Virus record (IMG/VR): IMGVR_UViG_3300037153_000232
Span: 1 to 56,922 of that record
Origin: a virus
Taxonomy: Duplodnaviria; Caudoviricetes
Strand: one strand, 5' to 3'
DNA length: 56,922 bases
The position numbers were made by a program, and so were the translations under genes. This document shows, in pieces, positions 5,104 through 51,964 of this stretch (its first letter is position 1; each line of letters opens with the position of its first letter). The notes under the pieces are model-generated. The model worked only from the letters and a program-made list of their open reading frames with translations. It did no database searches and was not told the DNA's origin.

Positions 5104-5105
5104 GC

Positions 5106-6734: not shown

Positions 6735-6826
6735 GCGGGCCTCCATCGCCCGCCGAGCGCCTGCGGGCCAGGTGCTCGCAAGAGAGCGTCTGGCGCAGGG
6801 GTCACATCCCGCCAGGCGCTCTTTTT
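6735..6826 (+). ncRNA. Candidate three-hairpin small RNA with anti-RBS loop CTCCATC
   Basis: TATAGT box at 6725-6730; hairpins 6735-6753, 6754-6778 and 6783-6822 followed by a T-run; intergenic. Confidence 0.6.
6783..6826 (+). terminator. Intrinsic terminator
   Basis: AGAGCGTCTGGCG...CGCCAGGCGCTCT stem followed by TTTT. Confidence 0.7.
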
Positions 6827-6838
6827 GATGCTGGATCT

Positions 6839-6881
6839 GTCACCGAAATTGTTGACAGGAGAGGCCGACGGGGCGTATATT
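6839..6881 (+). promoter_or_regulatory. Operator-overlapped sigma70-type promoter, probably leaderless transcript
   Basis: GTCACCGAAATTGTTGAC; TTGACA(6852)-18 bp-TATATT(6876); ATG 6 nt later. Confidence 0.8.
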
Positions 6882-6887
6882 CTGAGC

Positions 6888-7379: not shown

Positions 7380-7391
7380 GGAGACACCCCG

Positions 7392-17550: not shown

Positions 17551-18402
17551 GTGTCAATAGTACCCGATTCCCGGGGGCGCGCAAGTGTCGCGTCTGTAAA
17601 CACTGCTGACGACGACTGGACGCCAGAGCAGAAGCTGCGCGGTGCCCAGCACCTGGCCGAGCACGGGTCGGCTATGGCCACCATCCCGACGTCGATCTTG
17701 CTCGATCCGACGCTGGGCGACGCGCTGAAGGTGGTGCTGATGACCATGAGCACCGTGGCCGACCACGACGGCTTCCTGACCGTCAGCCAGGCCGAGCTTG
17801 GCCGACGCCTGGGCGTGAGCCGCCAGGCGATGTGCGCGCACATGCAAGAGGGCGTCGAAGCTGGCCTTATCGAGCACGTCGGGGCGACCTGGCGCGTGCG
17901 CTGGATCGCAGCCATGTGTCAAGCAGGGGTTGACAACCGCAACCCGGGGTTGACACCTGACCGTCAACCCCAACTTGACACTGTTAACTCGGGGTTGACG
18001 TCCTCACGCGCACGCGTTAAGTCCCCCACTACTACTACGTCTACCAAGTCCCTTGTTGTTCCTCTTACTGATTTAGAGAGAGACAAGGTGCGCGAGCGCT
18101 ACCTGGGCAAGCCGTTCCCGTCGGTCCAGCTAGAGGAGCAGATCGACCTGGCGCTCAGCCATCCAGCGGCCAAGAAGTACCCCACCAACCAGATCGGCTA
18201 CGTGATGAACTGGATGCGCCGCACCGCGCAGGAGCGCCGCGAGCACGAGGCCCGAATGGCCACCGAGCAGGCGCGCCTGGAGCGTGCCAGGACGCCGTAT
18301 GGTGGCGCGGTGACCGAGCCGACGCTGAAGTTCCGCAACATCCGCGACGTCGTGGGCCAGCCGTCAGAGGAGCATCTGGAGAACGCGAGATTCGCCTCGT
18401 GA
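17551..18402 (+). CDS. Phage replication initiator (N-terminal HTH, lambda O-like architecture)
   Basis: VSQAELGRRLGVSRQAM HTH, internal iterons, directly upstream of DnaB. Confidence 0.75.
   Translation: MSIVPDSRGRASVASVNTADDDWTPEQKLRGAQHLAEHGSAMATIPTSILLDPTLGDALKVVLMTMSTVADHDGFLTVSQAELGRRLGVSRQAMCAHMQEGVEAGLIEHVGATWRVRWIAAMCQAGVDNRNPGLTPDRQPQLDTVNSGLTSSRARVKSPTTTTSTKSLVVPLTDLERDKVRERYLGKPFPSVQLEEQIDLALSHPAAKKYPTNQIGYVMNWMRRTAQERREHEARMATEQARLERARTPYGGAVTEPTLKFRNIRDVVGQPSEEHLENARFAS
17917..18000. repeat. Four tandem ~19-bp palindromic iterons (putative replication origin)
   Basis: TGTCAAGCAGGGGTTGACA, CGCAACCCGGGGTTGACA, CGTCAACCCCAACTTGACA, TGTTAACTCGGGGTTGACG; an AT-richer tract follows. 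Confidence 0.8.
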
Positions 18403-32358: not shown

Positions 32359-33762
32359 ATGGCCGTCATCCTGAAGCACGAGCAACTGCGACGCCTGGCG
32401 AACATCGTGGGCGCGTGTCGGGGTGATCGCTGCGAGTTCTCGAAGGTCTTCTTCGGCAAAGACCTGCGCGAGAGTCCCTGGCAGGTGGACGCGGTGAACA
32501 TGGGCGGCACGATCTCGACCAAGGTCGCGGGGCGGCGCTCGGGCAAGACGCTGACGACCACGGTGGACGCGGTGCACGCGTGCGTCACCAACGCCAACCA
32601 CACGTGGTACGTGACAGGCCCGAGCCTCGACCAGGCCAGCCTGTACTTCAACGAGATCGAGCAGGCGGCGATGCGGCCCGACGGGCTGATGGAGGCGCTG
32701 CTGGACGGGCCGATCAAGCGCTCGCCCTTCCCGAGCGTGAAGTTCGTCACGGGCAGCGACATCCACGCCCGTTCGACCGCCCGCGACGGCGTGTACCTGC
32801 GCGGCAAGGGTGCCAACGGCGTGGCCGTCACCGAGGCCGCGTTCATCAAGGACAAGGTGTATCAGGAGGTCATTCGAGCGATGGTGCTCGACCGTCGCGG
32901 CGTGATCCGCCTGGAGAGCACGCCCAACGGCTCGAACTACTTCCACGGCCTGCACGAACTGGCCAACGGCGCGTCGCGTGTGCTGCTGGACGGCTCTGGG
33001 CGCATCTACACCGACCCGTCGCACTACTACCGCACCATCCACGCGACCGTCTACGACAACCTGGCGGTGCCGCGTGAGGAGATCGAGCGCATCAAGCTGG
33101 AGGTGCCCGACTGGGTCTGGGACGTCGAGTACCTGGCCAAGTTCGTGGACGACGACGAACTGGTCTTCTCGTGGCCGCTGCTGGCCGACCTGTTCGATGA
33201 GGACTACCCGATGCAGGCCGAGCCAGAGATCGGCCACCGCTACGTGCTGGGCGTGGACCTGGCGCAGGTGCAGGACTACACCAGCCTGACGCTGCTGGAC
33301 GTCACCTTCTGGCCTGTGCGACTGGCCTACTGGGCGGTCTACCGAGGCAAGCCCTACACGGGCGTCGGCAGCGTGGTGGAGGACGTCAACAGCCTGCGCA
33401 ACCGCTTCAACAACGCCCGCGTGCTGATCGACGCCACCACCGAGAAGGCCGTGGCCGAGCAGGTCGTGGGCGCGGAGGCCTACGTCTTCAGCCAGACCAG
33501 CCGCAACGCGCTGCTGAGCAACCTTCAGGTGCTGCTGCAACAGCGCAAGTTCGAGCTACCTGCGGGCTACACGCGCCTGCGCGACGAGCTTCGAGCGCTG
33601 CGCCGCGTCAAGAAGGGCCAGTCGAGCCGCGTGGACCACCCGACAGGCGGGCACGACGACACCGTGGTCAGCCTGGCGCTGGCAGCCTGGCCGCTGCGCG
33701 CCGCCATCTCGCCTGGCAGCCGCGAGGCTATCGAGGCGGTCGTGTCAGGCAGCTTCGCCTGA
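32359..33762 (+). CDS. terL: Terminase large subunit
   Basis: AGRRSGKT Walker A, ESTPNG, LGVDLA and HDDTVVSLALA. Confidence 0.95.
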   Translation: MAVILKHEQLRRLANIVGACRGDRCEFSKVFFGKDLRESPWQVDAVNMGGTISTKVAGRRSGKTLTTTVDAVHACVTNANHTWYVTGPSLDQASLYFNEIEQAAMRPDGLMEALLDGPIKRSPFPSVKFVTGSDIHARSTARDGVYLRGKGANGVAVTEAAFIKDKVYQEVIRAMVLDRRGVIRLESTPNGSNYFHGLHELANGASRVLLDGSGRIYTDPSHYYRTIHATVYDNLAVPREEIERIKLEVPDWVWDVEYLAKFVDDDELVFSWPLLADLFDEDYPMQAEPEIGHRYVLGVDLAQVQDYTSLTLLDVTFWPVRLAYWAVYRGKPYTGVGSVVEDVNSLRNRFNNARVLIDATTEKAVAEQVVGAEAYVFSQTSRNALLSNLQVLLQQRKFELPAGYTRLRDELRALRRVKKGQSSRVDHPTGGHDDTVVSLALAAWPLRAAISPGSREAIEAVVSGSFA

Positions 33763-33783: not shown

Positions 33784-34023
33784 ATGAGCATGTACGCTGG
33801 GTTGATGGTCAGCAAGCCAGCAGACGTCGAGCTACCCCGACTGATCGAGCGCTACCGTGTGACACGTGAACTGAGCGTCGGTGAGATGTGCCGCAAACTC
33901 GGCATCAACCGCCAGCGCTACTGGGACTGGCAGACCAACGGCATCCCGCAGGGCATGGTCACACTGGTGCGCCTGGCGATGCGCGAGGTGCAGCACCAGG
34001 GCAGGCAGCAGCGCCTACACTAG
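33784..34023 (+). CDS. Small XRE-type HTH protein
   Basis: LSVGEMCRKLGINRQRYWDWQTNG. Confidence 0.7.
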   Translation: MSMYAGLMVSKPADVELPRLIERYRVTRELSVGEMCRKLGINRQRYWDWQTNGIPQGMVTLVRLAMREVQHQGRQQRLH

Positions 34024-34027
34024 CGCC

Positions 34028-35584
34028 GTGCCGAACCCCATCACCAACGCGCTCAGCCGAGCCTTCAATCGGCTGGCCTATGGCGAGACGGACCCCTACG
34101 CGCCGCTGCGCCAGGACGGTGCCGCCATCACGGGCACGGGCTGGTGGCCCGGGCCAGGTGGTGCGTTCGACACCAGCCGCGTCGATTACGAGCGCGCCCG
34201 CAAGCTGTACCGCAACACCATCCCACAGTACAAGCTGGGCGCACACTTCAGCCGCCCGATCATCAACTACACGGCGGGCTATATCGGCGTGCCGCACTTC
34301 AAGAGCAAGGCCGACGTGCCCGAGGCGGACCAGGCGCTGAACGACTTCGATGAGCGCTTCGTGGCGCGCTTCCTGACCGTCAACCGCAACATGCTGCGCG
34401 ACGGCGACGTCTTCCTGCGGCTGGACTACGTGCCCGACAAGCTCGACCCGCGCAAGCGCCGCTTCGACGTGCGCATGGAGCACCCGGGCTGGTGCACGCC
34501 CAACCTCGATCCGATCTCGGGCGACTGGGAGAGCCTGGTCATCACCCACCCCGTCTATCCGACGATGCGCCCCGACGCGCAGGCCAAGCCGAGCTACGTC
34601 ATCACCGAGACGCTCACGCCAGACTCGATCCTCATCAAGGCCGACGAGCGCGCCCCAGCCGAGGTGCGAGCCAAGTATCCTGGCGAACCCGTACCGAACC
34701 CGTGGGGCTTTATTCCTGTGGTCCACTACAAGAACGAACCCGAGGAAAATCAGCTCTTCGGGGTGAGCGACCTCGAACCCCTTGAACCGTTGATGCGCGC
34801 CTACCACGACACGATGATGGTGGGTAACCAGGGCATCCGCCTGTTCGCCAAGCCCAAGGTCAAGTTCGTGCTGAAGGACGTCAACCGCTTCCTGGCCGAC
34901 AACTTCCCGGGCTGGCGACCTGGCCAGCCAGTCAACTTCCAGGGCCACGAGATCTTCCTGCTGACGCAGGACGAGGACGCCAACTACATCACCGCCGAGC
35001 CAGGCACGGCGGGCGTGGGCACGCTGCTGGAGTACCTGTTCTTCTGCATCCTCCAGACGGCGCAGGTGCCCGAGTTCGTGCTGGGCACCGCCGTCGCCTC
35101 CAGCCGCGCCAGCGTGGACACACAGATGGGGCCGTTCGTCAAGACCATCGAGCGCAAGCGCATGATGAGCACCGACCCCTACGTCGAGACGCACGAGATG
35201 TTCCTGGCGATGGCCAGCAAAGCACCTGGCTTCGGGATGCCCGCGCTGGACACCTACGAGGTCGAACCCGCCTGGCCCGAGATCCAGGCCAAGGACGAGA
35301 AGGCCGTGGCCGACACGCTGCTGTCGCTGTTCCAGGCCTTTCAGGTGGGCACGACCAGCGGCCTGGTGAGCATGGATGCTGCTAATGAGTTCCTGCGCGA
35401 CTTCGTGCCGACACTGCTGCCGTGGCTCGATTCTTCGGGCACTGAAGACGAGCGGCGACGCGTCATGAGCAGCCTGGCCTGGCTGGAGCGAGTCCAGAGC
35501 GGCGGGCTGCCGATGGACGTGAGCCAGCTTCAGGAGAACATGGGCCAGGGCACTGGCGACCTGACGGGGCAGCAAGCGGCCTAG
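34028..35584 (+). CDS. Portal protein
   Basis: Follows TerL; NPWGFIPVVHYKN and GVSDLEPL; TACACT box 6 nt before GTG. Confidence 0.88.
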   Translation: MPNPITNALSRAFNRLAYGETDPYAPLRQDGAAITGTGWWPGPGGAFDTSRVDYERARKLYRNTIPQYKLGAHFSRPIINYTAGYIGVPHFKSKADVPEADQALNDFDERFVARFLTVNRNMLRDGDVFLRLDYVPDKLDPRKRRFDVRMEHPGWCTPNLDPISGDWESLVITHPVYPTMRPDAQAKPSYVITETLTPDSILIKADERAPAEVRAKYPGEPVPNPWGFIPVVHYKNEPEENQLFGVSDLEPLEPLMRAYHDTMMVGNQGIRLFAKPKVKFVLKDVNRFLADNFPGWRPGQPVNFQGHEIFLLTQDEDANYITAEPGTAGVGTLLEYLFFCILQTAQVPEFVLGTAVASSRASVDTQMGPFVKTIERKRMMSTDPYVETHEMFLAMASKAPGFGMPALDTYEVEPAWPEIQAKDEKAVADTLLSLFQAFQVGTTSGLVSMDAANEFLRDFVPTLLPWLDSSGTEDERRRVMSSLAWLERVQSGGLPMDVSQLQENMGQGTGDLTGQQAA

Positions 35585-36226: not shown

Positions 36227-36859
36227 ATGGTGAGTACCTTCGATGAGGTCTTCCCGGGGCAGACGACGCTGCACGAGTACCTCGACAACCAGCCTGTCGA
36301 AGGGCCGCTGAACGACACCGAGAGCTACTACACGGGTCAGCAGCGCACCTGGCTGGCGCTGTACCTGCGGCAGTGCGCCGACGCGCTGGGGCTGGCTGAG
36401 TGGACGCTGCGGCTGTGGCACGAGCCGCCCGACGACGACGCGCACGCCAGCGTGACCGCCACATCGGGCCGCAAGTACGCCAGCTTCAAGTTCGACAGCT
36501 TCATGTTCCAGCAGGACGCGGACACGGCGCGCAACCACGTGGCGCACGAGCTTGGCCACGTGCTGTTCGAGATGCCGACGCAGATGGTGGACCACGACCT
36601 GAAGGGGCAGCTATCCGACTCGGCGCTGGCCATCTTCCAGTCGGGCTACCGCAGGCAGATGGAGTACGCCACCGACCACCTGGCGGGCCTGCTGGCGCGG
36701 CTGCTGCCGCTGCCGCCGTGGGCGTCGGTGGACGTGGCCGAGCGCACGCGCAAGGCGAACCTCACGGCGCAGGAGCAACACTCGCCCAACGGGCAGGTCG
36801 GTCAGAGTGAGCCAGCCACCATCACCGCCGCAGCCACCGCAGCCCCAGCCGAGCAATAG
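36227..36859 (+). CDS. Zincin-like (HExxH) metallopeptidase
   Basis: HVAHELGHVL with a downstream E. Confidence 0.6.
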   Translation: MVSTFDEVFPGQTTLHEYLDNQPVEGPLNDTESYYTGQQRTWLALYLRQCADALGLAEWTLRLWHEPPDDDAHASVTATSGRKYASFKFDSFMFQQDADTARNHVAHELGHVLFEMPTQMVDHDLKGQLSDSALAIFQSGYRRQMEYATDHLAGLLARLLPLPPWASVDVAERTRKANLTAQEQHSPNGQVGQSEPATITAAATAAPAEQ

Positions 36860-39800
36860 CCACATCTACCAGCAGAGCCTGGTGGACGCCCGCGAGGCGT
36901 GGGCCAAGCAGTCGGGCTTGACCACGGCGCAGGTCAGCAACGCCTACGCGCAGGCAGCCACCTCGCTGGGCGCACGCGTGGCAGCCGCGCCGCCGACCGC
37001 GCCCTCGACGCAGTGGAACCTGGGCCAGCTTCAGTCGATCATTCAGGACTACGGCGCGAACCTCGACCAGCGCGTGCTGGACTCGATGTACCTGGGCATC
37101 AACGCCAGCTTCCACGACAGCGCCGACAGCGTGCTGAAGACCAGCGTCAGCGACGCCTACGGGTCGGTCTTCGGCCCCGAGGCCATCGACGCGCACGTCA
37201 GGGGCGTCAACCAGCGCGCCGCCGCGAGCTTCATCACGCGCACGGGCAAGGACGGCATCAAGCTCAGCGACCGCGTCTGGCAGGCCAACCAGCAGTGGCG
37301 CATGGCGGTGCAGAACGTGGTGCAGGACGCGGTCATCTCGGGGCAGCCGCCCGTGCAGGTCGCCAGGCAGATCGAGCAGTACCTCCAACCAGGCGTGAAC
37401 GTGCCCTACAAGGCAGAGACGGCCAAGCGCTTGAAGGTGCCCAAGGACACCTCGATGCCCGCCATGCGCGTGGCCAGGACCGAGATGCAGAACGCCTTCC
37501 ACGAGGGCACCATCTCCAGCCACTCTTCGATGCCGAGCTACCTGGGCATCCGCTGGCACATCGCCGCAGGCCTGGGCCACGTGCCCGACATCTGCGACGA
37601 GTACGCCGCGCACGGCTTCTTCCCGAAGGGCACCGAGCCATCCAAGCCGCACCCGCACTGTTTCTGCACGGCCGTGCCCGTGCACCGCGACGCGGACGAC
37701 GTGCTCAACGATCTGGAGGAGTGGCTGCACGACCCGTCGAGCCACCCCGATCTGGAGAACTACTACCAGCAGTTGAAGCCGTTGCTGGACGTCGAGGTGG
37801 CGAGCGTGGCAGGCGGCGCGGGCGGACCGCTGCTGGGCGGCTACGCCAAAGGCGAGAAGGTGCTGATCGACGTCAAGGGCAGCGAGGTGATCGCCACCGT
37901 GGTGGGCGAGCACGCCAGCAAAGGCGTGCTGACGCTGACCATCGACCCGGGCCAGGGGATGGCCTCGATCAAGGTCTGGCGAGCGCCGAGCAAGGTCAAG
38001 CTGTACACGGGTCCGCCGACCGAGCCGACGCCGCTTCAGCCAGGCCCGCCGCAGACGCTGCTGACGGGCATCGACGTCGGCGTGATCGTGCACGCCACCA
38101 AAGGCCAGCACCTGGGCAAGGTGGGCGAGGTCACCGCGCTGAACACGGCGGGTGGCCTGGTGCACGTCAAGTGGACGGACGGCACCGAGAACAACGTGGT
38201 GCTGAGCAACCTCGAAGTCGCGCCGCCGCCGCCGACCAACCTGGCCGTGGGCACCGTGGTCAAGTTCCACGCGCCCGAGCAGCCGCAGGTGGACGGGCAG
38301 TTCGGCACGATCAAGGCGGTGCACCCCAACGGGGATCTGGAGGTGCAGGTCAACATCAGCGGCCAGAGCTTCATCGCGGACGTGCCCTACGTCGGCAGCT
38401 TCAAGCTCGAAGCGGTCACGCCCACGGCAGCCGCCACCACGCCTGGCGGGCCGCAGGTGATCGGCTACGTGGACATGCCTGGCAACCAGCACCACGGCAA
38501 GGCGGTCATCAACCAGATGGACGCCAACAGCATCGCCTTCAAGGAGGGCGGCTGGGCCTTCAACGCGGACCCGTGGAAGCTGTCACCGACCGATCCGACC
38601 GCCGTGCCGCCGCCTCCTCCCGCGCCGCCAGTGGCACCGCCGACGTCGCCGTTCAAGGTGGGCGACACGGTGCAGATCGACACGCCGCAGTACCCGATGA
38701 CGCACGGCCAGCAGGGCACGGTCACGGCCATCAGCCCGACGGGCATCCATCAGGTGCAGTTGGCCGACGGGTCGCACGAGTATTTCTCCACCAACGAGAT
38801 CGGCCAGGGCTGGATCAAGCCGCTGGCCACGCCGCCGAGCGCCAGCGTCGGGCCGCAGGTGCCGACCGTCCAGGGCATCGACCACCTGAGCATCCACGAC
38901 AAGGTCAAGGTCAACGACCCGGGAGGCGTGCTCAACGGGGCCACCGTCGAGCTTTACGGCCCGCCGACGCTGTTCGGTGCCACCGAGCACATCCCCGTCA
39001 TCCTGCCCGACGGCTCTGTCGGCTACGTCCAGAAGGACCATCTCGTGGACCCGAACGTGCCGCTGGGCACGGCCACGGTGGGTCGGCCGCTGGCCACGCT
39101 GGACGACCTGGCCATAGGCGACCCCGTCTATATCACACAGGGCGTCAACCAGGGCCTGACCTTCTACCTGGGCGAGACGCCCGCCTGGTTCAACGCTGCC
39201 GACGTGCTGACGGTGTACGCCACCAAGGACGACCTGGCCAAGGACGAGAGCGCGCTGTTCGTCGGCAAGAACGCCATGCAGCCCGTAACTGGCTTCATGG
39301 TCCACGAGCACCCGCCGCTGCATCAGTTGAAGGCGGGCGACACGGTGCTGCTGCTGAAGAGCCAGTGGAAAGGCCAGGAGGCGACGCTGCTGGAGGACAT
39401 GGCGGGCAAGAAGACAGGCTCGCTGGTGCCCGTGCAGTTGAAGAGCGGCCAGCACGCTGACTTCTACCCCGAGGAGATCGCACTACCCGCCAGCGCCGCG
39501 ACGCCGCCTGCTGGCACGACCACGGGCAAGCCCATCGAGGACTACGGCGTGGGCGACACGATGGTGGTCACCAACCCGAACCACCCGCTGTTCGGCCAGG
39601 AGGTGACGCTCCAGGCCAAGTGGAACGCCAACCCGAACGTGAACCTGACGACCAGCGTGCCTGGTGGTGGCCTCCAGTTCATCAAGGCAGGCGACCTGGG
39701 CATCCCGCCGCCGCCACCGAGCGCGCCGCCCGTGCCCGTGGCCAACCACTGGGATGCGATGAAGGCGGGCGACCACGTGCAGATCAACCTGCCAGGCAGC

Positions 39801-42800
39801 ACGCATCACCACGAGGACGCCTGGCTGGTGGACGACCTGGCAGGCAAGAGCGCCACCGACCTGATCGCGGTGCACTTCGCGGACGGCTCGCTGTACAGCT
39901 ACGAGGTCGGCCAGATCGCCGCGCCCATCGGTGCGCCGCAGCCCGTGCCCGCTGGCATCCTCATCAAAGCCTCGCCGTCCAAGGGCACGCAGGCCGTGGT
40001 CTACGACCCGGGCAACCCCGACCACGGCACCAAGGTCGAGATCCTTCAGGACAAGCCTGGCGCGAGCGACACGACGCCGATTCAGGTGAAGTTCCTCGAA
40101 GGCGCATACGCGGGCGACACCGAGTTCTACCTGCACAAGCAGTTGATGGTGCCTGGCGTGCCGCTGGCCGCGACGCCCGCTGTGCCGCCGCCCGCCGTGG
40201 TCACGCCGCCGCCAGGCGCTGCCGCCGTGGACGTGACGCAGAAGGGCACCAAGGTGGTCACCGACTACAAGGGCCAGCGCAACATCTACGGCACCGTCAC
40301 CAGCTTCAACACGGGCAAGAACGTGGTGGTCATCAAGCCCGACACGCCGATCCCGGGCATGTCGGGCACGACCTTCACCAAGAACCCGAAGTACGTGAAG
40401 GCGGTCGTGCAGCCAGGCACCACGCCGCCCGTGCAGCCGACGACCACGCCGCCGCCTCCCCCGACGCCAGGCTCGATCAACCACCTGAAGGCGGGCGACA
40501 CGGTGATCGTCAACATGCCTGGCTCGCCCTTCCACGGCGAGGAGTTCCTGCTGGAGTACGACGCCGCAGGCCTGCCGCCGAACGCCTTCGTCGCCGCCAC
40601 CAGCGTCAAGACGGGCGCGCTGACGACCTTCACGGTGTCCGATCTGGTGCCGCCAGGCACGCCCATCGCCGCGCCGCCGCCCACGCTGCACACCGCCGAG
40701 GCTGGCGGCAAGGCGACCTACGCGGGCCTGACCGAGGTCACGCTCATTTCACCGAGCAGCGCCTCTAGCTGGAAGGTCGAGCTACCCGACGGCTCCGAGG
40801 TGTCGGTGCCGACGTCGGTGCTGACCGACTTCAAGCCCGCGCCGCCTGGCTACACGCCGCCTGCCGCCGCGCCCGTCGCACCACCTCCCCCGCCGACACC
40901 ACCCCCAACGCCTCCAGCACCCGTGCCAGTGGACGTCACCAAGGTCGGCACCAAGGTTATGACCGACTACCAGGGCATCCTCGTGCAGGGCACGGTCACC
41001 GCCTACAACGTCGGCAAGAAGGTGGTGACGGTCAAGCCCGACACGCCCATCCCGGGCGTGCCAGGCAAGTTCCAGAAGTCGCCATCCAAGGTGCAGCCGC
41101 AGGCCGCGCCGCCAGGCGTCACGCCCGCGCCAGCGCCGCTCCAGCCCACGGTCGCCACGCCGCCAGCGGCGGGCAAGCCGCAGATGCCGACGAGTCTGCC
41201 GCCCGACCCGCCGCAGCCGCTGATATCGAGCTTCAAGGTCACGCCGCAGAGCGTCGGCGGCGGGCACGCCAAGACCATCTACAAGAACCCCGCCGACGAC
41301 TCGACGTGGATGTTCAAGCCCGACCCGAACGCGGCCAACGCGGAGAAGGCTGGCTACAACGTCATGGGCCTGCTGGGCTACCAGACGCCCGAGATGCACG
41401 TCATGACGGTCGGCGGGCAGGTCGGGTCGGTGCAGAAGTTCCACGACATCAAGGGCACCGTCAAGATGGGCACGCTGACGTCGCTGACCGTCGCGCAGCG
41501 CGCCGAGATCCAGCAGCACATGATTATCGACTGGCTCATCAGCCAGCACGACTCGAACAACGGTGCGCTGCTGATCGGCCAGGACGACCACGTGCTGGCC
41601 ATCGACAAAGGCCAGGCCTTCAAGTTCCTGGGCAAGGACAAGCTGCACTGGACCTACGAGCCGAACCCCGACGGCGTGGTCTACAGGCCGCTGTTCGAGG
41701 GCTACATCAGCCACAAGTACGACCTCGACCGTGCTGCGGTGGACCCGCTCATCGACAAGATCGAGGCGCTGGACGACAACGTCTTCAAGGAGGCGGTCAG
41801 GCCCTACGCCGAGCACGCCGCCCGCGTCGGCCTGGTGGCCAGCCCCGACGTCATCTACGACCAGCTACTGAAGCGCAAGCACTCGATCCGCGCCGACGTC
41901 GCCAAGCTGTACGACGAGGCCGACGCGCTGGCTGGCAAGCCGCCGCGCCAGGCGACCGTCTCACCCACGCCGCAGGTCGCGCCCGTCACCACCACGGTCA
42001 CCACGGGCCAGGTCACGCCCATCGCCAGGCCGTTGCTGGACGCCATCGACGCGGCAGGCTGGGCTGGCCACTCGATCATGCTGGGCGGTCAGGACGTCGA
42101 GACGGGCAACGCGCTGGCCTACACGCTGCGCAAGCCCGACGGCTCGCGCCAACTGGTGGTCGAGATGCGTCTGCGCGCCCAGGCCGAGCCGAAGCTGTTG
42201 GCCAAGCTCGACGGCGTGACGCACATCGCCGCAGCGGGCGCGCCAGTTGACCCGACGTGGAACACGCTGCTGCCCGCCGTCAAGCACGTCGGCTACCACC
42301 TGAAGCCTGGCTCGACGGGCAAGGACGACACGCTCACCGCCAGCAAGATCCAGCCGATCCTCGACATCGCGCAGCAGATCCAGGGCGGCAACATGGATCG
42401 GGGCAAGGCCGACCACTACGGCATCGTCATCAGCACGCTGACGGGCTGGTCGCCCGCCGAGGTCGCCAGCCAGCCGCTGTCGGCGCTCGAATCGCAGATC
42501 AAGCTGTGGTGGTCCACCAACACGGCGGTGCACGCGGCCACCTTCGACCAGTACACGCCGCCGACGCCGTCCTCGATCACCACCACGCCGCCCGACAAGG
42601 TCAAGGCCAAGACCGAGCAGCCGTGGGGCTTGCAGCGAGCGCTGTCGCCCACGGGTGAACTGACGACGACCAACGCCCGCGCCGTTGGCCGCGCCGCAGG
42701 TCACGAGGGCAACGCGCTGCACACGCTGACGCTGGCCCCCGACATGACGGGCACGTATATGCCGTTCAACCAGGGCGGCAACATGTTCTCCAAGCAGGGT

Positions 42801-43742
42801 CGCCTGGTCATCTACAAGGACAACTACCAGGGCACCGAGGCCGAGGTGCAGGCGGCGCTGGATCAGGTCAAGCGCCTGGGCGTGGACGCGGAAGTGGCGA
42901 CCGCCGACGACATGGAACTGCTGTACCTGCATCACCAGGCGCACGCGGCCAAGGTCGAGGAGAGCGCCGACTACAAGACCAACGTGCTCAACAAGATCAC
43001 GCCCACGATGAGCGCGGCGGACCAGGCGCGCATTCACCGCGACTGGTGGAACAAACGCCTGGGCGTCTCCGACGTGCGCACGCTGCCGAGCTACAACCCG
43101 ACGCCGCAGTTCGACGCCACCTACCGCCCCGCGCCCGTCGGCCACCAGCAGCAGGAGGGCGGCTACGCCTACTTCGAGCGCTTCGACATCAGCCAGGCCG
43201 ACCTTGATGCGGCGCTGCCTGGCTACGGCCTGACGCACCGCTCGTCGCTGGGCGCGGAGGGCTTCGTGGACGTGCTGCTGGACGGCAACGCGCACATGGC
43301 CCCCACCGAGGAGCGCATCCGCACGGGCGTCTACCGTTCGGGCGTCGGCATGTCCTCCAGCGCCGACATGGGCACTGGCGGCGCGAACTACTTCTTCACG
43401 CGCATCAGCAAGCCGACGAGCTTCGACCGTGGCCAGTTCGTCTTCGACACGTCGCTGCTGCGGCGCACCGATCTCATCAGTTACGATGGTGACAGATTCG
43501 GTCGTGCGGACAAGAACACCAAGCGCGACCGCAACGTCACCCTCGCGGACTGGAAGGCCGCATCGAGCGGCGGCAGCAACGAGGCCATCATCAAGAACGG
43601 CTTCCCGCTCCTGGGCTACCTGAAGCAGATCAGGGCGAAGACGAGTGCCGAGCGCAACAGGATCATCGCCAAGTTCAAGGCCCGTGGCATCTCCGAGGTG
43701 CGCGGCGTGCCCATCGAGCAGGTGGTGATCGTCGGTGCCTGA
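36807..43742 (+). CDS. Giant MuF (SPP1 gp7-like) head protein with SH3/KOW-like repeats, HipA/PI3K-like kinase and putative ART-like C-terminus
   Basis: RVARTE...DICD...PHPHCFC (MuF); repeated 'xxGDxV...hG' modules; WMFKP...DWLISQHD...IDKGQAF; THRS...YFFTR...NEAII. Confidence 0.8.
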   Translation: MSQPPSPPQPPQPQPSNSHIYQQSLVDAREAWAKQSGLTTAQVSNAYAQAATSLGARVAAAPPTAPSTQWNLGQLQSIIQDYGANLDQRVLDSMYLGINASFHDSADSVLKTSVSDAYGSVFGPEAIDAHVRGVNQRAAASFITRTGKDGIKLSDRVWQANQQWRMAVQNVVQDAVISGQPPVQVARQIEQYLQPGVNVPYKAETAKRLKVPKDTSMPAMRVARTEMQNAFHEGTISSHSSMPSYLGIRWHIAAGLGHVPDICDEYAAHGFFPKGTEPSKPHPHCFCTAVPVHRDADDVLNDLEEWLHDPSSHPDLENYYQQLKPLLDVEVASVAGGAGGPLLGGYAKGEKVLIDVKGSEVIATVVGEHASKGVLTLTIDPGQGMASIKVWRAPSKVKLYTGPPTEPTPLQPGPPQTLLTGIDVGVIVHATKGQHLGKVGEVTALNTAGGLVHVKWTDGTENNVVLSNLEVAPPPPTNLAVGTVVKFHAPEQPQVDGQFGTIKAVHPNGDLEVQVNISGQSFIADVPYVGSFKLEAVTPTAAATTPGGPQVIGYVDMPGNQHHGKAVINQMDANSIAFKEGGWAFNADPWKLSPTDPTAVPPPPPAPPVAPPTSPFKVGDTVQIDTPQYPMTHGQQGTVTAISPTGIHQVQLADGSHEYFSTNEIGQGWIKPLATPPSASVGPQVPTVQGIDHLSIHDKVKVNDPGGVLNGATVELYGPPTLFGATEHIPVILPDGSVGYVQKDHLVDPNVPLGTATVGRPLATLDDLAIGDPVYITQGVNQGLTFYLGETPAWFNAADVLTVYATKDDLAKDESALFVGKNAMQPVTGFMVHEHPPLHQLKAGDTVLLLKSQWKGQEATLLEDMAGKKTGSLVPVQLKSGQHADFYPEEIALPASAATPPAGTTTGKPIEDYGVGDTMVVTNPNHPLFGQEVTLQAKWNANPNVNLTTSVPGGGLQFIKAGDLGIPPPPPSAPPVPVANHWDAMKAGDHVQINLPGSTHHHEDAWLVDDLAGKSATDLIAVHFADGSLYSYEVGQIAAPIGAPQPVPAGILIKASPSKGTQAVVYDPGNPDHGTKVEILQDKPGASDTTPIQVKFLEGAYAGDTEFYLHKQLMVPGVPLAATPAVPPPAVVTPPPGAAAVDVTQKGTKVVTDYKGQRNIYGTVTSFNTGKNVVVIKPDTPIPGMSGTTFTKNPKYVKAVVQPGTTPPVQPTTTPPPPPTPGSINHLKAGDTVIVNMPGSPFHGEEFLLEYDAAGLPPNAFVAATSVKTGALTTFTVSDLVPPGTPIAAPPPTLHTAEAGGKATYAGLTEVTLISPSSASSWKVELPDGSEVSVPTSVLTDFKPAPPGYTPPAAAPVAPPPPPTPPPTPPAPVPVDVTKVGTKVMTDYQGILVQGTVTAYNVGKKVVTVKPDTPIPGVPGKFQKSPSKVQPQAAPPGVTPAPAPLQPTVATPPAAGKPQMPTSLPPDPPQPLISSFKVTPQSVGGGHAKTIYKNPADDSTWMFKPDPNAANAEKAGYNVMGLLGYQTPEMHVMTVGGQVGSVQKFHDIKGTVKMGTLTSLTVAQRAEIQQHMIIDWLISQHDSNNGALLIGQDDHVLAIDKGQAFKFLGKDKLHWTYEPNPDGVVYRPLFEGYISHKYDLDRAAVDPLIDKIEALDDNVFKEAVRPYAEHAARVGLVASPDVIYDQLLKRKHSIRADVAKLYDEADALAGKPPRQATVSPTPQVAPVTTTVTTGQVTPIARPLLDAIDAAGWAGHSIMLGGQDVETGNALAYTLRKPDGSRQLVVEMRLRAQAEPKLLAKLDGVTHIAAAGAPVDPTWNTLLPAVKHVGYHLKPGSTGKDDTLTASKIQPILDIAQQIQGGNMDRGKADHYGIVISTLTGWSPAEVASQPLSALESQIKLWWSTNTAVHAATFDQYTPPTPSSITTTPPDKVKAKTEQPWGLQRALSPTGELTTTNARAVGRAAGHEGNALHTLTLAPDMTGTYMPFNQGGNMFSKQGRLVIYKDNYQGTEAEVQAALDQVKRLGVDAEVATADDMELLYLHHQAHAAKVEESADYKTNVLNKITPTMSAADQARIHRDWWNKRLGVSDVRTLPSYNPTPQFDATYRPAPVGHQQQEGGYAYFERFDISQADLDAALPGYGLTHRSSLGAEGFVDVLLDGNAHMAPTEERIRTGVYRSGVGMSSSADMGTGGANYFFTRISKPTSFDRGQFVFDTSLLRRTDLISYDGDRFGRADKNTKRDRNVTLADWKAASSGGSNEAIIKNGFPLLGYLKQIRAKTSAERNRIIAKFKARGISEVRGVPIEQVVIVGA

Positions 43743-44100
43743 GCCTGCGGACACGGCGCGCACGCTGGTGCACAACGGCGCGACGGGCGAGATCCACTTC
43801 GTGGACGGCTTCGAGGTGGCACCCTCCCCGATCATCGCGCTGATGGTGGGCAGCACGGCGGTGAGCTTCTTCTGGCTGACCGACGAGAACGAGCACGTGC
43901 TGGACCTGGGCACGCTGCTGGACGGTGACGACGGTGACGTGCTGGTGACCAACACCAACGGTGACGAGCTACGCATCTGGGGCATCTTCGAGGACGCCGA
44001 CTGGCAGCGCCTGAACGAGTTCGTGGCGGCGGTCAAGAGCGGCAACTGGCCACCGCTGGGCCTGGACGAAAGCTGGACGCGCTACAAAGAACTTGACTGA
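43735..44100 (+). CDS. Acidic hypothetical protein, candidate immunity protein
   Basis: Overlaps the MuF stop codon; 121 aa. Confidence 0.55.
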   Translation: MPEPADTARTLVHNGATGEIHFVDGFEVAPSPIIALMVGSTAVSFFWLTDENEHVLDLGTLLDGDDGDVLVTNTNGDELRIWGIFEDADWQRLNEFVAAVKSGNWPPLGLDESWTRYKELD

Positions 44101-44414
44101 TGGCCGTCTACCGCGTCATGCGGGAGAGCTTCGCCACCGACCAGGGCTACCTGCCTGGCCTGGCGTGGGTCTACGACGGTCGCCAGATCTGGCTGACCGC
44201 GCTGCCCACCTACGAGCCTGAGCGCGCCGACCTCCAGGCGCAGATCGACCACGCGCTGGCCAACGGCTTCCACTCCGACGAGGTCTGGATGCACTGGGCG
44301 CAGCAGGGCGGGCAGCACCAACTGTCGATGCGGTCGGCACCCGAGCCGCTCATCGCGCCGTCGCTGAAGGCAGCCATCGACGCGGCACTGGCGTCGCTCC
44401 AGACGGCGCGCTAG
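44100..44414 (+). CDS. Hypothetical protein, candidate immunity protein
   Basis: TGATG coupling; 104 aa. Confidence 0.55.
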   Translation: MAVYRVMRESFATDQGYLPGLAWVYDGRQIWLTALPTYEPERADLQAQIDHALANGFHSDEVWMHWAQQGGQHQLSMRSAPEPLIAPSLKAAIDAALASLQTAR

Positions 44415-44618: not shown

Positions 44619-45239
44619 ATGCTCGTAAGGATCACGGCGGCTGCCGCTCTGCTGGCCGCTTCTTTCGCTACAGCAGCCGACGCGCAGGAACTGGTGCCAG
44701 GCGACGCAGCGATGGCACCCACCAGCGTCGCTCCAGCGTCAAAGGCAGAGCAGGACTACTGGTTCGACAACGGCTTCGAGCAACTGCACCAGCAGATAGG
44801 CTCGATCATGGGCCGCGCCGTCGAGCCAGAACACGGCACCGACGAGGCGGGCGAGGTGGTGCAGCGCACCTCCACGGGCCTGGCCGTCTGGAAGCCAGGC
44901 AGCGTGCCACGCTTCACCGATGGCTGGCGCACCTGGGCCGTGGAAGCACCCGTCACGCAGGAGGTCGCCTCGATCTCCGCGCCACACGTCGGTTACAGCG
45001 TGTGGGACAGGCTGGCGGCGTGCGAAAGCGGCGGCAACTGGGCGAGTCGCACCAACCCGATCTACAAGGGCGGCGTGCAGATGGACTCGACGTTCTGGGC
45101 ACGCTACGGTGGCCTGGCGTTCGCCGCCCGCGCCGACTATGCCACACGTGAGCAGCAGATCCTCGTGGCGCAGCGCGGCCTGGCCGTGCAGGGCTGGTTG
45201 GCTTGGCCAACGTGCAGTCGTATTATCGGGCTTAGGTGA
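44619..45239 (+). CDS. Secreted Rpf-family transglycosylase
   Basis: Signal peptide; WDRLAACESGGNW, YKGGVQ, ATREQQI and AWPTCS. Confidence 0.92.
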   Translation: MLVRITAAAALLAASFATAADAQELVPGDAAMAPTSVAPASKAEQDYWFDNGFEQLHQQIGSIMGRAVEPEHGTDEAGEVVQRTSTGLAVWKPGSVPRFTDGWRTWAVEAPVTQEVASISAPHVGYSVWDRLAACESGGNWASRTNPIYKGGVQMDSTFWARYGGLAFAARADYATREQQILVAQRGLAVQGWLAWPTCSRIIGLR

Positions 45240-45730
45240 CCACCCTTGGCCTACGAGGTCTGTTCGACAACGGGCGCACCGCACGCCCCGTTGTAGAGCG
45301 TGTCAGGTCCAATTGCGACATCGACCCGCTGACGGGCTGCTGGCTGTGGCGAGGCTACTGCGACGAGTGGGGCTACGGCCGCACTAAGGTCGGCAGCCGA
45401 CGCGATGGCTCGCGGCGCAGCGTCCGCTGCCACCAGGCGACCTGGGAAGCGCTCCACGGCCGCGTGCCCGAGGGCCTGGAGCTTGACCACTTCTACTGTG
45501 ACCGACCGCGCTGCGCGAACCCCGACCACGTCCGACCTGAGACGCCTCGCGGCAACACGCTGCGCAGCCAGGCACCTACAGCCAAGCTCGCCAGGCGCGA
45601 ATCGTGCCCAAACTGTGGCGGGCCGTTTTCACTCGACCGTCGCGGCTACCGCGCCTGTCGGCCATGCCGTCAGGCCTATTTTCGCGCCTACAACGCGAGG
45701 AGGAACCATGCCCAGAATCATGAAGTGTAA
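45236..45730 (+). CDS. HNH homing endonuclease
   Basis: GCWLW...GYG...ELDHFYCDRPRCANPDHV...N. Confidence 0.9.
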   Translation: MTTLGLRGLFDNGRTARPVVERVRSNCDIDPLTGCWLWRGYCDEWGYGRTKVGSRRDGSRRSVRCHQATWEALHGRVPEGLELDHFYCDRPRCANPDHVRPETPRGNTLRSQAPTAKLARRESCPNCGGPFSLDRRGYRACRPCRQAYFRAYNARRNHAQNHEV

Positions 45731-48758: not shown

Positions 48759-50459
48759 GTGACGCTGAGGATCAGCCGCGACCGCGTCTCTGGCCGCTCA
48801 TGGGGCGACGTCAACAACACCGCGCTGCGGCAGCGGTTGACCAAAGCGCTGGACGACGAGGAGAGCGGCGCGAGCCAGGCGGTACGCGAGGTCTATGCCG
48901 TCATCAAGGGCGACGGGCCGCTCGACCAGAACCCGTCAGGCCGCTGGTGGGGGCCACATCACGAGGTCACCTCCGATGGCGAGGTGGTGCTCAACCGCGC
49001 TGGCCTGGGCGCGGCAGCGGCAGCACTGGCGGGTGGGCGGGCCGAGCCTGACCTGAGCACCGAGGAGCGTGCCCGGGCGCAGCGCCACCTGGCGGCGCAC
49101 TACAACACCAACGACATTCCGCTGCCAGAAGGATTCTCGGGCAGCGCAGGCGAGATGCACATCCTGGCGGGCAGCGTGGGCGAGATGTCGCCCGACGAGA
49201 TCCCGTTGAGCACGGCGTTCTCCGAGTCCAATCGCCAGGCGCTGCTGAAGGGCGACGACGACCCGATGGAGGTCGTGATCGAGGTATCGCCAGGCAAGAG
49301 CAGCCGTGGTTGGCACTACACGCCGCAGGCGCTCCAGAAGATGGTCGCGCACGTCAACGCCAAGACGCTGGCGGGCATCAAGGGCCATCAGCGCGACGAG
49401 GACGTCTCGAACCAGTTCGTGGACCCCGCGACACACTGGATCGGTGCCGTCTGGAAGGACGACAAAGCCTACTTTCGGGGCCTGATCGACAAGAGCGCGC
49501 CAGATCTGAAGCGCTGGATTCGGGCCAAACGCATCACGCAGCCATCCATCTTCACCCGCCCCGTGCTGAGCCGCGTGAACGGCGAGACGCACGTGGTCGA
49601 TCTCGAACCGCTGGGCATCGACTGGGCACCGCTCGACCGTGCAGGGATGCCGAGCGCACGCGTGGTCTGGGGCGAGATGGACGTTATCGGCGGCGAACCG
49701 TTCGAGCGGCGTGAGCCGCCTGCGGGCGGCAGCGACCACATACATGACGGGAGGACCACCGTGCCTACAGTACGAGAGTCGATTGACGCGCTGCGTGAGC
49801 AAGGCGCAACCGCCAGCCAGGTGATGCAGGGCATGAACTGGCGAGCGTCCGACGTGATGCCCGGGCTGATTGCCAGCGACCGTCGCGGCGTGGCCGAAGC
49901 GCTCGACCAGGCGACGCTCCAGCACGTGGCCGCAGGCGAGATGGCCAAGGCGCACCGCCCGCAGGATCTGCTGGCAGGCATGGGCCTGGCGCTGGACGCG
50001 GTCGGGCCGCTGGTAGACGACACCGCCTGGAAGCGCTACGTCGCGGCGGACAAAGCCGTGGGCGAGATGCGCAGCGCGCTGGGCTTGCCCGAGACGGCCG
50101 ACGCCGAGCAGGTCAGGACCAGGGTCACCGAGCTTCAGACGGCCGTGGCCACCAGTGCCACGCAGTCGCTGCGCACCAGCGTCGAGAGCATCGTCGCACG
50201 CGGCGAGATGGCCGTGCCCACAGCCGCCAGGCCGCTGGTCACCAACGCGGCGATGGGCGAGCTTGCACCAGGCGCGGACGAGGCGACCATCAAAGCCGCC
50301 ATCGCCAAGGTCAAGGGCCGAGACGACATCAAGCCGATCCTCGACGCTGGCCTGGGCACGCAGGTGATCCGCACCACGTCGGCGGGCGAGATGCACACCG
50401 CCAACGGCGGCACCAACGGCCACGAGGTCGGCTTGCCCGTGCGCCGCCGACAGATCTGA
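48759..50459 (+). CDS. Prohead protease-scaffold fusion
   Basis: Upstream of the capsid genes; GKSSRGWHY...GIKGH core; helical Ala-rich C-terminal half. Confidence 0.75.
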   Translation: MTLRISRDRVSGRSWGDVNNTALRQRLTKALDDEESGASQAVREVYAVIKGDGPLDQNPSGRWWGPHHEVTSDGEVVLNRAGLGAAAAALAGGRAEPDLSTEERARAQRHLAAHYNTNDIPLPEGFSGSAGEMHILAGSVGEMSPDEIPLSTAFSESNRQALLKGDDDPMEVVIEVSPGKSSRGWHYTPQALQKMVAHVNAKTLAGIKGHQRDEDVSNQFVDPATHWIGAVWKDDKAYFRGLIDKSAPDLKRWIRAKRITQPSIFTRPVLSRVNGETHVVDLEPLGIDWAPLDRAGMPSARVVWGEMDVIGGEPFERREPPAGGSDHIHDGRTTVPTVRESIDALREQGATASQVMQGMNWRASDVMPGLIASDRRGVAEALDQATLQHVAAGEMAKAHRPQDLLAGMGLALDAVGPLVDDTAWKRYVAADKAVGEMRSALGLPETADAEQVRTRVTELQTAVATSATQSLRTSVESIVARGEMAVPTAARPLVTNAAMGELAPGADEATIKAAIAKVKGRDDIKPILDAGLGTQVIRTTSAGEMHTANGGTNGHEVGLPVRRRQI

Positions 50460-50875: not shown

Positions 50876-51964
50876 ATGCGCATCATCGACGCCCCAACGC
50901 TCCGCGCAGAGCGCCGCCAGGGCGAGCACAGCTACATCGCCCGCGCCACGATCTTCGACCAGCCATACGAGGTGCCGATTCGACTCGCCCACGGCGAGAT
51001 GGACACCTACGAGCTTGACCGCCCCGTGCGGGACTACCTGGCACTCCTCAACAGCCGCCCGATGGCCGCAGGCGAGATCATCACCACGCCGTCGAACCTG
51101 GCGCAGTTCGTCACCAAGACGGTGGTGGACCTCAACCTGGGCCGCGAGCAGGTGCCGCTGCTGTACCCCGCCGTTTACACGCGCACCATCACCGACGCCA
51201 ACCTGACCGAGAACGTGGACGTCGGCGCAATCATGGCCCGCGCCAGCGTGGTCTTCCTGCAACACATGGAAGGCGGCGAGGTGCGCTTCGGCACGCGCAC
51301 GCTGACGCCGCGCCAGACCGTGCCGCTGGCCACCTACGCGGCAGGCTTCGAGTACACCGAGGACGTCGTTGAGTACGACAAGACCTGGGAGATCGCGCAA
51401 CTCAACGAGGCGATTGGCAGGGCGTACAACGCGCTGCTGAACCACATCCACCTGTACCCGATCACCAGCTACACCTACGCGGCCAAGAACCAGACGCCCG
51501 CCGACACAACGGGTGGCACGTTCCGCGAGAAGATGCGCAACACGCTGAAGGCGGCGCTCATCCACGCTGGCAGCGACACGCAGACCGACACTGGCCTGGG
51601 CCGCTCACCGAACGTGTTGCTGGCGCACTCCAGCCGTCGCTGGGACATCGAGGAGGCGCTCCAGCGCTTCGTCATCAGCGGCACCGAGTACCCCGCGCTG
51701 GCGGGCATCGACACGCTGGTCTTCTACGACGGCTACTCGATCACCGTCGGGGCGCGCAAGTACACCTACCCCGGGGTGGCCACCAACAAGGCCTACCTGA
51801 TCGACACGAGCACGTACCTGATCGAGCTTGTCAAGCACGACCTGCGCACCGACGCGGGGCCTGGCGACCTGAGCCGCCTGATCCAGCAGCAGATCGTCGC
51901 CCGCGCTCGACGCGGCGTGTTCGTCTCACCACCCAACTGCGTCGAGGAGGTCACCCTGCCGTGA
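50876..51964 (+). CDS. Major capsid protein
   Basis: 362 aa, strong SD, position; EGGEVRFG and YAAGFEYTED. Confidence 0.85.
   Translation: MRIIDAPTLRAERRQGEHSYIARATIFDQPYEVPIRLAHGEMDTYELDRPVRDYLALLNSRPMAAGEIITTPSNLAQFVTKTVVDLNLGREQVPLLYPAVYTRTITDANLTENVDVGAIMARASVVFLQHMEGGEVRFGTRTLTPRQTVPLATYAAGFEYTEDVVEYDKTWEIAQLNEAIGRAYNALLNHIHLYPITSYTYAAKNQTPADTTGGTFREKMRNTLKAALIHAGSDTQTDTGLGRSPNVLLAHSSRRWDIEEALQRFVISGTEYPALAGIDTLVFYDGYSITVGARKYTYPGVATNKAYLIDTSTYLIELVKHDLRTDAGPGDLSRLIQQQIVARARRGVFVSPPNCVEEVTLP

Follow-up and report, generated by a model that had tools for sequence, protein, structure and literature searches.

The window analysed here is a 56,922-base stretch of viral DNA (Duplodnaviria; Caudoviricetes) that makes up the entire IMG/VR record IMGVR_UViG_3300037153_000232. 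It holds a giant gene (36807..43742, + strand) whose product of 2311 residues, P0001, is on balance probably a virion-packaged, injected dual-enzyme effector for takeover of the host or for counter-defence. From its N-terminus onward, P0001 consists of a MuF-type head-morphogenesis domain, a string of 15 KOW/SH3-like modules, an atypical protein-kinase-like domain, a middle domain, a helical connector and a C-terminal domain to which, with moderate confidence, a modelled ADP-ribosyltransferase (ART) fold of the H-Y-E (DarT-like) kind is assigned. Sequence comparison indicates that the kinase-like domain, the middle domain and the ART domain make up a single conserved cassette, found widely on MuF proteins, and not an ad hoc assembly. 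The effector reading is supported by the order of the genes, in which terminase and portal lie upstream of the giant gene and the capsid gene lies downstream of it, a head-gene context. Apparent selection on catalytic-type residues likewise argues for activity of the cassette. The proposal of the preliminary description, an injected host-takeover or anti-defence protein with an array of binding modules, would fit published MuF fusions, which are thought to be packaged in heads and injected, as far as the available text of these papers goes (PMC5576092, PMC5512222, PMC9503650).

Domain architecture of the giant protein

Residues 21-324 (36867..37778, +) match PHROG 1657, 'head morphogenesis', at E 8.1e-53, in agreement with a MuF domain read earlier from the letters of the sequence in about the first 330 residues. 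Eleven further head-protein PHROGs also match, and one PHROG match of P0001 carries the annotation 'pilot protein for DNA ejection'. The Pfam model PF04233 matches one of 11 close relatives (6.5e-4) and seven of 47 cassette relatives, and a profile of the family N-termini aligns with the N-termini of a PF04233-positive family (L026, 4.7e-15) over 239 columns (hhalign 94.6%, E 6.6e-8). In two relatives, P0005 (~410-640) and P0012 (~440-640), an HExxH-bearing insert, read by eye, stands right after the MuF domain; it is absent in P0001, and its motif suggests a zincin-like peptidase.

The MuF domain is followed at residues 343-1430 (37833..41096, +) by 15 delimited modules of 45-70 residues each, separated by proline-rich linkers, so that the approximately 15 SH3/KOW-like modules with poly-proline linkers noticed at first are borne out in number, in homology and in their all-beta character. 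Two classes of module can be distinguished, type A (modules 2-11, 13 and 14; n=12) and type B (modules 1, 12 and 15; n=3). When module profiles cut from an 11-sequence family alignment are compared all against all, 26 of the 105 pairs reach a probability of at least 90%; with 18 equally long pieces of other domains as a control, none of the 270 module-versus-non-module comparisons reaches 50% (maximum 4.8). A near-duplicate pair that had been picked out by eye corresponds to modules 12 (residues 1135-1187) and 15 (residues 1369-1420), which are 60% identical as protein by windowed BLAST and 80% identical as DNA over 79 nt. Self-BLAST of the whole region returned the self match only. Module hidden Markov models (HMMs) detect 8 to 15 modules in eleven relatives, the count for P0001 itself being circular.

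The fold of the modules was approached through an AlphaFold2 model of residues 1130-1715, which has a mean predicted local distance difference test score (pLDDT) of 87.6. Modules 12-15 are modelled as separate small all-beta domains (pLDDT about 85-96) joined by disordered linkers. The best matches of this model in a Foldseek search of the PDB are tandem-KOW chains of Spt5 (E 1.3e-10 and weaker), and an Agenet/Tudor array is matched as well; in a VIA fold search, module 14 aligns to a ribosomal large-subunit chain over 64 residues (Z 8.0, root-mean-square deviation (rmsd) 3.4). At the level of sequence, Pfam KOW matches two of the 11 relatives (best E 4.4e-6) and SH3_15 matches four of 11 at about 2e-3. 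In P0001 itself SH3_15 scores 18.7 bits against a cut-off of 24, and SH3_10 and LSM12 likewise remain below their curated cut-offs. The pattern G-D-x-V...H-G-x-x-G-x-V can nevertheless be read directly in the P0001 modules. The designation 'KOW/SH3-like' is thus supported at the level of the modelled fold. The likeness to the KOW and SH3-like barrels of Spt5/NusG consists of the Spt5 multi-KOW matches, the readable motif and the KOW matches in two of 11 relatives; the array of P0001 differs in having no transcription-factor context, in comprising two module types and in occurring in 8 to 15 copies among relatives.

The atypical protein-kinase-like domain occupies residues 1470-1715 (41214..41951, +) and is modelled with pLDDT above 90. 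Its best match in the VIA search is PI4KIIalpha (Z 15.6, 222 residues, rmsd 3.5, 17% identity), followed by CtkA (14.1), Fam20 (13.0), actin-fragmin kinase (12.6), ATM (12.1), Vps34 (11.8), CotH (11.6), HipA (11.1) and MavQ (11.1). Altogether 46 chains match at Z>=8, and the matches to the named atypical kinases span 201-226 residues. Classical kinases also match the model in Foldseek, at E about 1e-5, and the fold is that of a bilobal kinase. The first description had placed a HipA/PI3K-like kinase at ~41220-41930; the kinase fold holds at 41214-41951, while the nearest relative requires revision, since type II PI4-kinase, CtkA and Fam20 all stand ahead of HipA. Pfam gives no match, HipA_C included, to the kinase domain of P0001, whereas among its relatives HipA_C matches four of 47 cassette proteins (best E 1.9e-5) and Fam20C matches one of 11 close relatives.

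Three residues of the kinase-like domain are nearly invariant in domains aligned from all stored relatives: K1504 of 'FKP' (184/184), D1582 (186/186) and D1600 of 'IDKGQ' (185/186), these counts leaving out about 70 of 255 stretches that are partial and gapped at the columns concerned. By motif position they are assigned as the ATP lysine, the catalytic-loop aspartate and the metal-binding aspartate, respectively. The motifs presumably also resemble those of PI4KIIalpha itself (FKP; IDNGLAF). The catalytic loop is more variable. The majority of the family has D-x-H-x-x-Q/N, the subclade of P0001 has D-S/T-N-x-G-A and P0012 has D-T-H-K-D-N; among ~186 domains in which the residue is present, position +2 is H in 136 and N in 25, and position +5 is Q in 92, N in 65 and A in 22. 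P0001 reads D-S-N-N-G-A and therefore departs from the canonical D-x-H-x-x-N loop, as the preliminary description had observed in calling its loop (HDSNNGA) atypical. Thus, the domain shares with PI4KII, CtkA, Fam20, actin-fragmin kinase and HipA the fold, the family 'FKP' lysine, the aspartate of an HD..-type loop and the aspartate of 'IDKGQ', and it differs from them in lacking a Pfam match and in a loop, D-S-N-N-G-A, that does not follow even its own family's D-x-H-x-x-N/Q. Two relatives, P0016 and P0017, have two kinase-like domains each.

The remainder of the protein was modelled as one piece of 574 residues (1738-2311) with an alignment of 46 relatives, giving a mean pLDDT of 93.5 and a predicted TM score (pTM) of 0.82. 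Three parts are apparent in the model: a curved beta-sheet domain with a helical-bundle insert, a helical connector and an alpha/beta domain. The first of these, the middle domain (residues 1738-2029; 42018..42893, +), corresponds to the domain of no recognised identity that had been noticed between the kinase and the tip. Modelled only as part of the larger piece, it gives weak fold matches to CYTH (Z 5.0-5.4), type III secretion chaperones (3.3-5.2), START (4.3-5.2) and TBP (~3.5), the ExExK motif of CYTH is not read in it, and a search of the ESM Atlas with residues 1738-2132 returned no usable match. The connector (residues 2032-2132; 42900..43202, +) is helical by model secondary structure, and the SopF match described below spans connector and ART domain together.

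For the C-terminal domain (residues 2135-2311; 43209..43739, +), structures of DarT lead a wide VIA search: 7omv (Z 8.6, 154 residues, rmsd 3.5), 8baq (Z 8.4, 159 residues, rmsd 3.5), 7omu (Z 8.3, 146 residues, rmsd 3.1) and 7yk3 (Z 7.8, 149 residues, rmsd 3.4). They are followed by SopF (6.0), Tpt1 (5.9), CteC (5.2) and OspC3 (4.2); of the top eight rows, seven are ART enzymes, namely the four DarT entries with SopF, Tpt1 and CteC. A second VIA search places DarT in the top six rows at Z 8.0-8.8, the best DarT matches covering 147-154 residues at rmsd 3.4-3.5. A best Z of 7-8 is common in VIA for models that have no true relatives, and in Foldseek nothing in the PDB matches the C-terminal model at E<=1e-3, the DarT rows standing at E 0.1-0.4 with probability up to 0.87; among viral models the Foldseek matches, all at E 3e-3 or weaker, are confined to unnamed proteins of giant viruses, iridoviruses and baculoviruses. 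The ART fold is called because the list consistently consists of ART enzymes and because the expected residues are conserved.

More specifically, H2144 ends the first core strand (model residues 404-408), Y2195 lies in the 'NYFFTR' strand (458-464) and E2259 starts the 'NEAII' strand (522-526), so that His, Tyr and Glu stand on the first, third and fifth core strands in an H-Y-E arrangement. R2199 and N2258 are also on strands, beside Y2195 and E2259, which agrees with the H...FTR...NE pattern of an ART-like domain proposed earlier at ~43200-43742. In 244 aligned domains the counts are H 221, Y 231 (F 6) and E 242, and D2187 (244), S2183 (241), R2172 (230) and R2199 (236) are similarly retained. 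The available text of PMC11543638 places DarT2 in the H-Y-E class. The likeness to DarT (of DarTG) therefore comprises the best fold match of the C-terminal 177 residues (Z 7.8-8.8) and the H-Y-E residues. Against this, sequence identity is 5-12%, the P0001 domain has no Pfam or PDB sequence match to place it in the DarT family proper, and it is fused to a 2100-residue head protein whereas DarT is a free toxin of 200 residues. The downstream open reading frames (ORFs), when searched, also provide no neighbour of the DarG macrodomain or NADAR kind, unlike in DarTG. DarT is a host defence; in P0001 it is the phage that carries a DarT-like enzyme. Two tandem ART-like C-terminal domains are present in P0046 and P0093. 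Taken by domain, AlphaFold models and fold searches, the kind of examination that had been recommended, gave kinase and SH3/KOW-like folds and, at moderate strength, an ART fold.

Distribution of the kinase-ART cassette

An exhaustive HMMER search with residues 1738-2311 yields 952 representative proteins when the limit is set at E<=1e-3, 571 when it is <=1e-10 and 116 when it is <=1e-30. Among 150 listed matches, nearly all are at the C-terminus of proteins of 1000-3000 residues. By local phmmer, the kinase-like and C-terminal domains occur together in 80 of the best 150 matches, or in 73 of the 112 that have at least 900 residues, and all three parts of the cassette are detectable in 58 of the best 150. 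On bacterial genome contigs the three parts are found in 59 of 69 ORFs of at least 900 residues. Cassette proteins are typically 1150-1650 residues long, and all eight that were sampled carry N-terminal PHROG matches of the MuF or head-morphogenesis kind. An intein splicing domain is present in one of 47 cassette relatives.

The genomes concerned are labelled as Desulfobacterota, Sphingomonadaceae, Verrucomicrobiota, Planctomycetota, Nitrospiraceae, Endozoicomonas and others. In a complete genome of Desulfosarcina the order is terminase, portal, MuF-cassette protein (PF04233, 4.7e-15), two small ORFs and a D12 methyltransferase fusion; the MuF-cassette protein has 1529 residues from its first ATG, in a stop-to-stop frame of 1557. 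A MuF-cassette protein of 1557 residues (L003-L020, L026 and L041; ORF ~2998-7671) recurs with 95.5-97.2% identity across 15 further ORFs, in genomes or MAGs whose labels belong to different phyla or classes: Desulfosarcina, Desulfofustis, Desulfobulbus, Desulfocarbo, Geobacteraceae, Rhodospirillaceae, Ectothiorhodospira, Verrucomicrobiota and Ca. Thiosymbion. These near-identical proteins represent either a very broadly spread prophage-like element or an effect of binning or contamination. Among isolated phages the cassette is scarce: tblastn of the 847-residue cassette against 50,697 phage records matches 13, none covering 80% of it, twelve of them Mycobacterium phages with the kinase part only and the other Pseudanabaena phage Pan1 with the ART end only (9e-7).

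The kinase-like domain is also found with a second type of ART. The 2035-residue P0012 has a MuF domain, a module array and a kinase-like domain, followed by an ART of the VIP2 type (PF03496, 6.9e-17). The mycobacteriophage/prophage protein McProf gp54 (BK061309, 'minor capsid and ADP-ribosyltransferase fusion protein'; L001 2594-6151; 1185 aa) resembles P0001 in its MuF domain, its kinase-like domain (1.1e-27), its C-terminal ART, assigned by record annotation, and its position directly after the portal gene; it differs in having no module array, in an annotated ART of the VIP2 kind, as in P0012, and in an unrelated small gene downstream. Because the kinase-like domain precedes two different ART types, a functional kinase-ART partnership is suggested. 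The long module array alone is special to the small phage group to which P0001 belongs.

Small genes directly follow the cassette gene. Among 146 loci with enough 3' sequence, an ORF of ~165 residues starts at the stop of the cassette gene in 106, and another of ~117 residues lies ~460 nt further on in 126. In the window, the same places are occupied by an acidic ORF of 121 residues (43735..44100, +), a candidate partner that overlaps the stop of the giant gene, and by an ORF of 104 residues (44100..44414, +). The latter is conserved at 36-68% identity in three viral contigs, L082, L084 and L085, which are syntenic with the window, and its profile matches that of the ~117-residue family (hhalign 92.2%, E 6e-7), which makes it a member of a downstream small-protein family. 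The 121-residue ORF has a weak match in L082 only, clusters by BLAST at 1e-5 with the ORF that comes first after the giant gene in L084 and in L085, and is not linked to the ~165-residue family by profile comparison. Neither ORF has a significant Pfam or PHROG match or a macrodomain or NADAR match, and McProf gp55, which follows the kinase-VIP2 protein, shows no link to either downstream family. The pattern seen for the 104-residue/~117-residue family would fit a partner of the middle-domain-plus-ART part, whether antidote, chaperone or cofactor, a fit that in itself proves nothing.

Continuity, relatives and genomic context of the giant gene

The giant gene is a single open frame of 2311 codons with a GTG start and no internal stop. 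The public gene call, P0002, has 2286 residues and starts 25 codons inside P0001. A peptide 'SNS.IY.QSL.DAREAW' that is kept in relatives lies upstream of the P0002 start, and position 36807 is taken as the start because it is the sole start codon that includes this peptide. Since the record is a metagenomic contig and the gene caller's start lies further in, it might be asked whether assembly or gene calling has fused separate genes, an artefact that the preliminary description had itself named as grounds for rejecting its reading. Such a fusion is extremely improbable. The frame is uninterrupted, and nine metagenomic relatives found by a word-indexed full-length search (P0003-P0011; 1878-2603 aa), all from samples other than that of the window, contain MuF, kinase, middle and C-terminal domains in identical order, P0003 being 65% identical to P0001 across 100% of the query length. 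The loci are, moreover, syntenic, and because independent metagenomes hold syntenic full-length relatives the gene is not an assembly chimera.

The three syntenic contigs are also revealing of the relative rate at which the gene evolves. Their capsids are 89-91% identical to that of the window, and the portals of L084 and L085, where the fetched stretch reaches the portal gene, are 77-82% identical, whereas the identity of the giant MuF protein in the family alignment falls to 48-67%, compared with ~90% for capsids among syntenic relatives. Together, the syntenic relatives and the lower identity of the giant protein indicate that the gene is real and, as judged from the sequences, evolves faster than the neighbouring capsid and portal genes, so that the giant cargo gene appears to be the fast-evolving part of the head module.

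The head block of the window reads terminase, portal, a 210-residue gene, the giant gene, small ORFs and an HNH endonuclease, a PHROG 3219 protein and capsid. The large terminase subunit (32359..33762, +) matches PF03237 at E 2.1e-7 and the portal protein (33881..35584, +) matches PHROG 64 at E 2.8e-23. The 210-residue gene between the portal and MuF genes (36227-36859, +) is conserved in L082 and L084 with 56-65% identity over residues 1-184, and at its 3' end 53 nt are shared, in a different frame, with the beginning of the giant gene; Pfam and PHROG searches with it gave no match. The HNH endonuclease (45236-45730, +; PF13392, E 1.5e-5) lies inside the head-gene block between the MuF and capsid genes, and the PHROG 3219 protein (48759-50459) and the capsid gene (50876-51964; PF25209; PHROG 3116, E 2.6e-102) follow. 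The early region encodes a ParB-like protein (10857-12251, +; PHROG 4715, E 3.1e-15) and a DnaB-like replicative helicase (18399-19937, +; PHROG 19, E 7.5e-81). The G+C content is 65-69% all along the window (about 67%).

Searches with the giant gene as a whole return little. Megablast against the phage records gives no match, Pfam and NCBIfam on the whole of P0001 give only sub-threshold SH3_15, SH3_10, LSM12 and TIGR03843, and sequence searches of the PDB with P0001 and with profiles A2 and A3 return nothing usable.

Functional readings and significance

Packaging, injection, both enzyme activities, their targets and the roles of the modules and of the small gene are all steps that we infer. 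As published MuF fusions suggest, the N-terminal MuF domain would bring the giant protein into the prohead, and a few copies would be packaged alongside the DNA and released into the host at infection. There, host macromolecules would be modified at an early stage, by the kinase at the expense of ATP and by the transferase at that of NAD+, in the service of takeover or counter-defence. The beads-on-a-string module region may act as a spacer or as a binding array, and the 104-residue downstream protein may protect the producing cell from the cassette or else assist the cassette.

Several observations weigh against this reading. No virion proteomics, expression or activity data for P0001 or its relatives were found. 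PF04233 (Phage_Mu_F) does not match P0001 at E<=0.1. The kinase loop, with neither H at +2 nor Q/N at +5, could denote a kinase that is altered or weak in this copy. In the model comparisons the strength of the ART match is moderate (Z 8.6-8.8, Foldseek E 0.1-0.4), and the H-Y-E mapping is drawn from strand positions in the model and from conservation, not from residue-level superposition. A kinase of 250 residues and a compact unit of 575 residues would both have to unfold for passage through the tail channel. Finally, the record is a linear metagenomic contig, 71% complete by estimate.

Alternatively, the protein may be a MuF polymorphic toxin for bacterial competition, with a lethal cassette carried on particles released by lysogens, or on particle-like remnants, and with immunity provided by the downstream gene or genes. 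Such a model has been published for MuF toxins (available text of PMC5576092), and it would account for the family of small proteins encoded behind the cassette gene in 126 of 146 loci, to which the 104-residue ORF belongs, for the absence of this family after McProf gp54, which has the kinase with another ART, and for the many cassette genes in prophage-like regions of bacterial chromosomes. A toxin of this kind is nevertheless unlikely here, given that the C-terminus is not polymorphic in the usual sense, the same three-domain cassette being kept over hundreds of clusters without being swapped, and that no ADP-ribose-removing antidote of the macrodomain or NADAR type adjoins it; no sign of an integrase or of lysogeny turned up on the contig, in which no search was aimed at them. 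Still less probable is a mainly structural protein in which module string and cassette serve assembly, packaging or ejection as a ruler, a plug or a pilot, with enzyme-like domains that bind without catalysis. MuF proteins such as SPP1 gp7 do have roles in assembly and ejection with no toxin domain (PMC5576092, available text), and both the 'pilot protein' annotation and the departure of the P0001 kinase loop from the family consensus would agree with such a role. Conservation that falls on catalytic-type residues (E in 242 of 244 domains, the kinase Lys and both Asp in essentially all) is, however, hard to explain for scaffolds, and a range of 8 to 15 modules among relatives with ~90% identical capsids argues against a ruler.

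Two further alternatives are both concerned with nucleic acid. Tpt1 and T4 gp2 have end-capping roles. The transferase, perhaps with the kinase, might be directed at the phage itself, marking or capping its DNA in the capsid or at entry as protection from host nucleases or restriction. The nearest solved folds are ADP-ribosyltransferases of single-stranded DNA bases, followed by Tpt1, an ADP-ribosyltransferase of nucleic-acid phosphate; the protein joins the domain to MuF, which lies alongside the DNA inside the head; and modules of the KOW type occur in nucleic-acid-associated proteins, as the Spt5 matches recall. Self-modification is improbable all the same, because the fold does not fix the substrate, protein-directed SopF, CteC and OspC3 also being matched, because ATP and NAD+ are not expected inside capsids, and because evidence of DNA binding is lacking. 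In a more elaborate scheme, which we regard as rather doubtful, kinase, middle domain and DarT-like transferase would act as one machine on nucleic acid, an injected DNA- or RNA-directed ADP-ribosylation that mirrors DarT defence. Such a machine might stall the host chromosome, or it might label or cap the genome of the phage itself. The kinase would have the task of preparing the modification or of locking it in place, the KOW-like modules would keep the enzyme bound to nucleic acid or to the transcription and translation apparatus, and the downstream small protein would be a dedicated inhibitor or helper.

As an injected effector, P0001 would have known counterparts. The MuF polymorphic toxins and polyvalent proteins (Jamet et al. 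2017, PMC5576092; Iyer et al. 2017, PMC5512222) share an N-terminal MuF domain, C-terminal enzyme cargo and adjoining terminase and portal genes, and in the available text of both papers ART domains are the commonest MuF cargo and packaging with injection is proposed. The kinases described in the available text of PMC5512222 are of a Ser/Thr/Tyr type without a C-lobe and P-loop kinases like zeta toxin, whereas that of P0001 is PI4KII/HipA-like. T4 Alt (PMC9503650, available text) is likewise an injected ART, carried in the capsid, that modifies host proteins at infection, a comparison by concept only, since Alt is an ART of the R-S-E/VIP2 type that is not fused to MuF and has neither kinase nor module array. 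In the literature consulted, including the available text of PMC5512222, PMC9503650, PMC5576092 and PMC3482391, no description was found of a PI4KII/HipA-like kinase with a DarT-like ART on a MuF protein or of a 15-module KOW-like array, and lists of architectures in the supplements may hold the cassette. MuF-borne ARTs and polyvalent proteins are already known, and P0001 reads as a variant of this MuF effector/toxin kind.

The ART of P0001 is of the kind that bacteria themselves use against phages. The variable string of 8-15 barrels is unusual for a head-internal protein and raises the question of how it is packed and ejected. High-confidence models and the candidate catalytic residues K1504, D1582, D1600, H2144, Y2195 and E2259 render the predictions directly testable. 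Effectors fused to MuF are regarded as one of the principal ways in which phage enzymes enter cells, and very few have been studied. The cassette is common in nature: 952 representative clusters match at E<=1e-3, and it is carried both by uncultured phages and by prophage-like regions in many bacterial phyla. It is almost absent from the 50,697 phage records. Within a single unit it is predicted to combine two chemistries of the signalling type, phosphorylation with ATP and ADP-ribosylation with NAD+.

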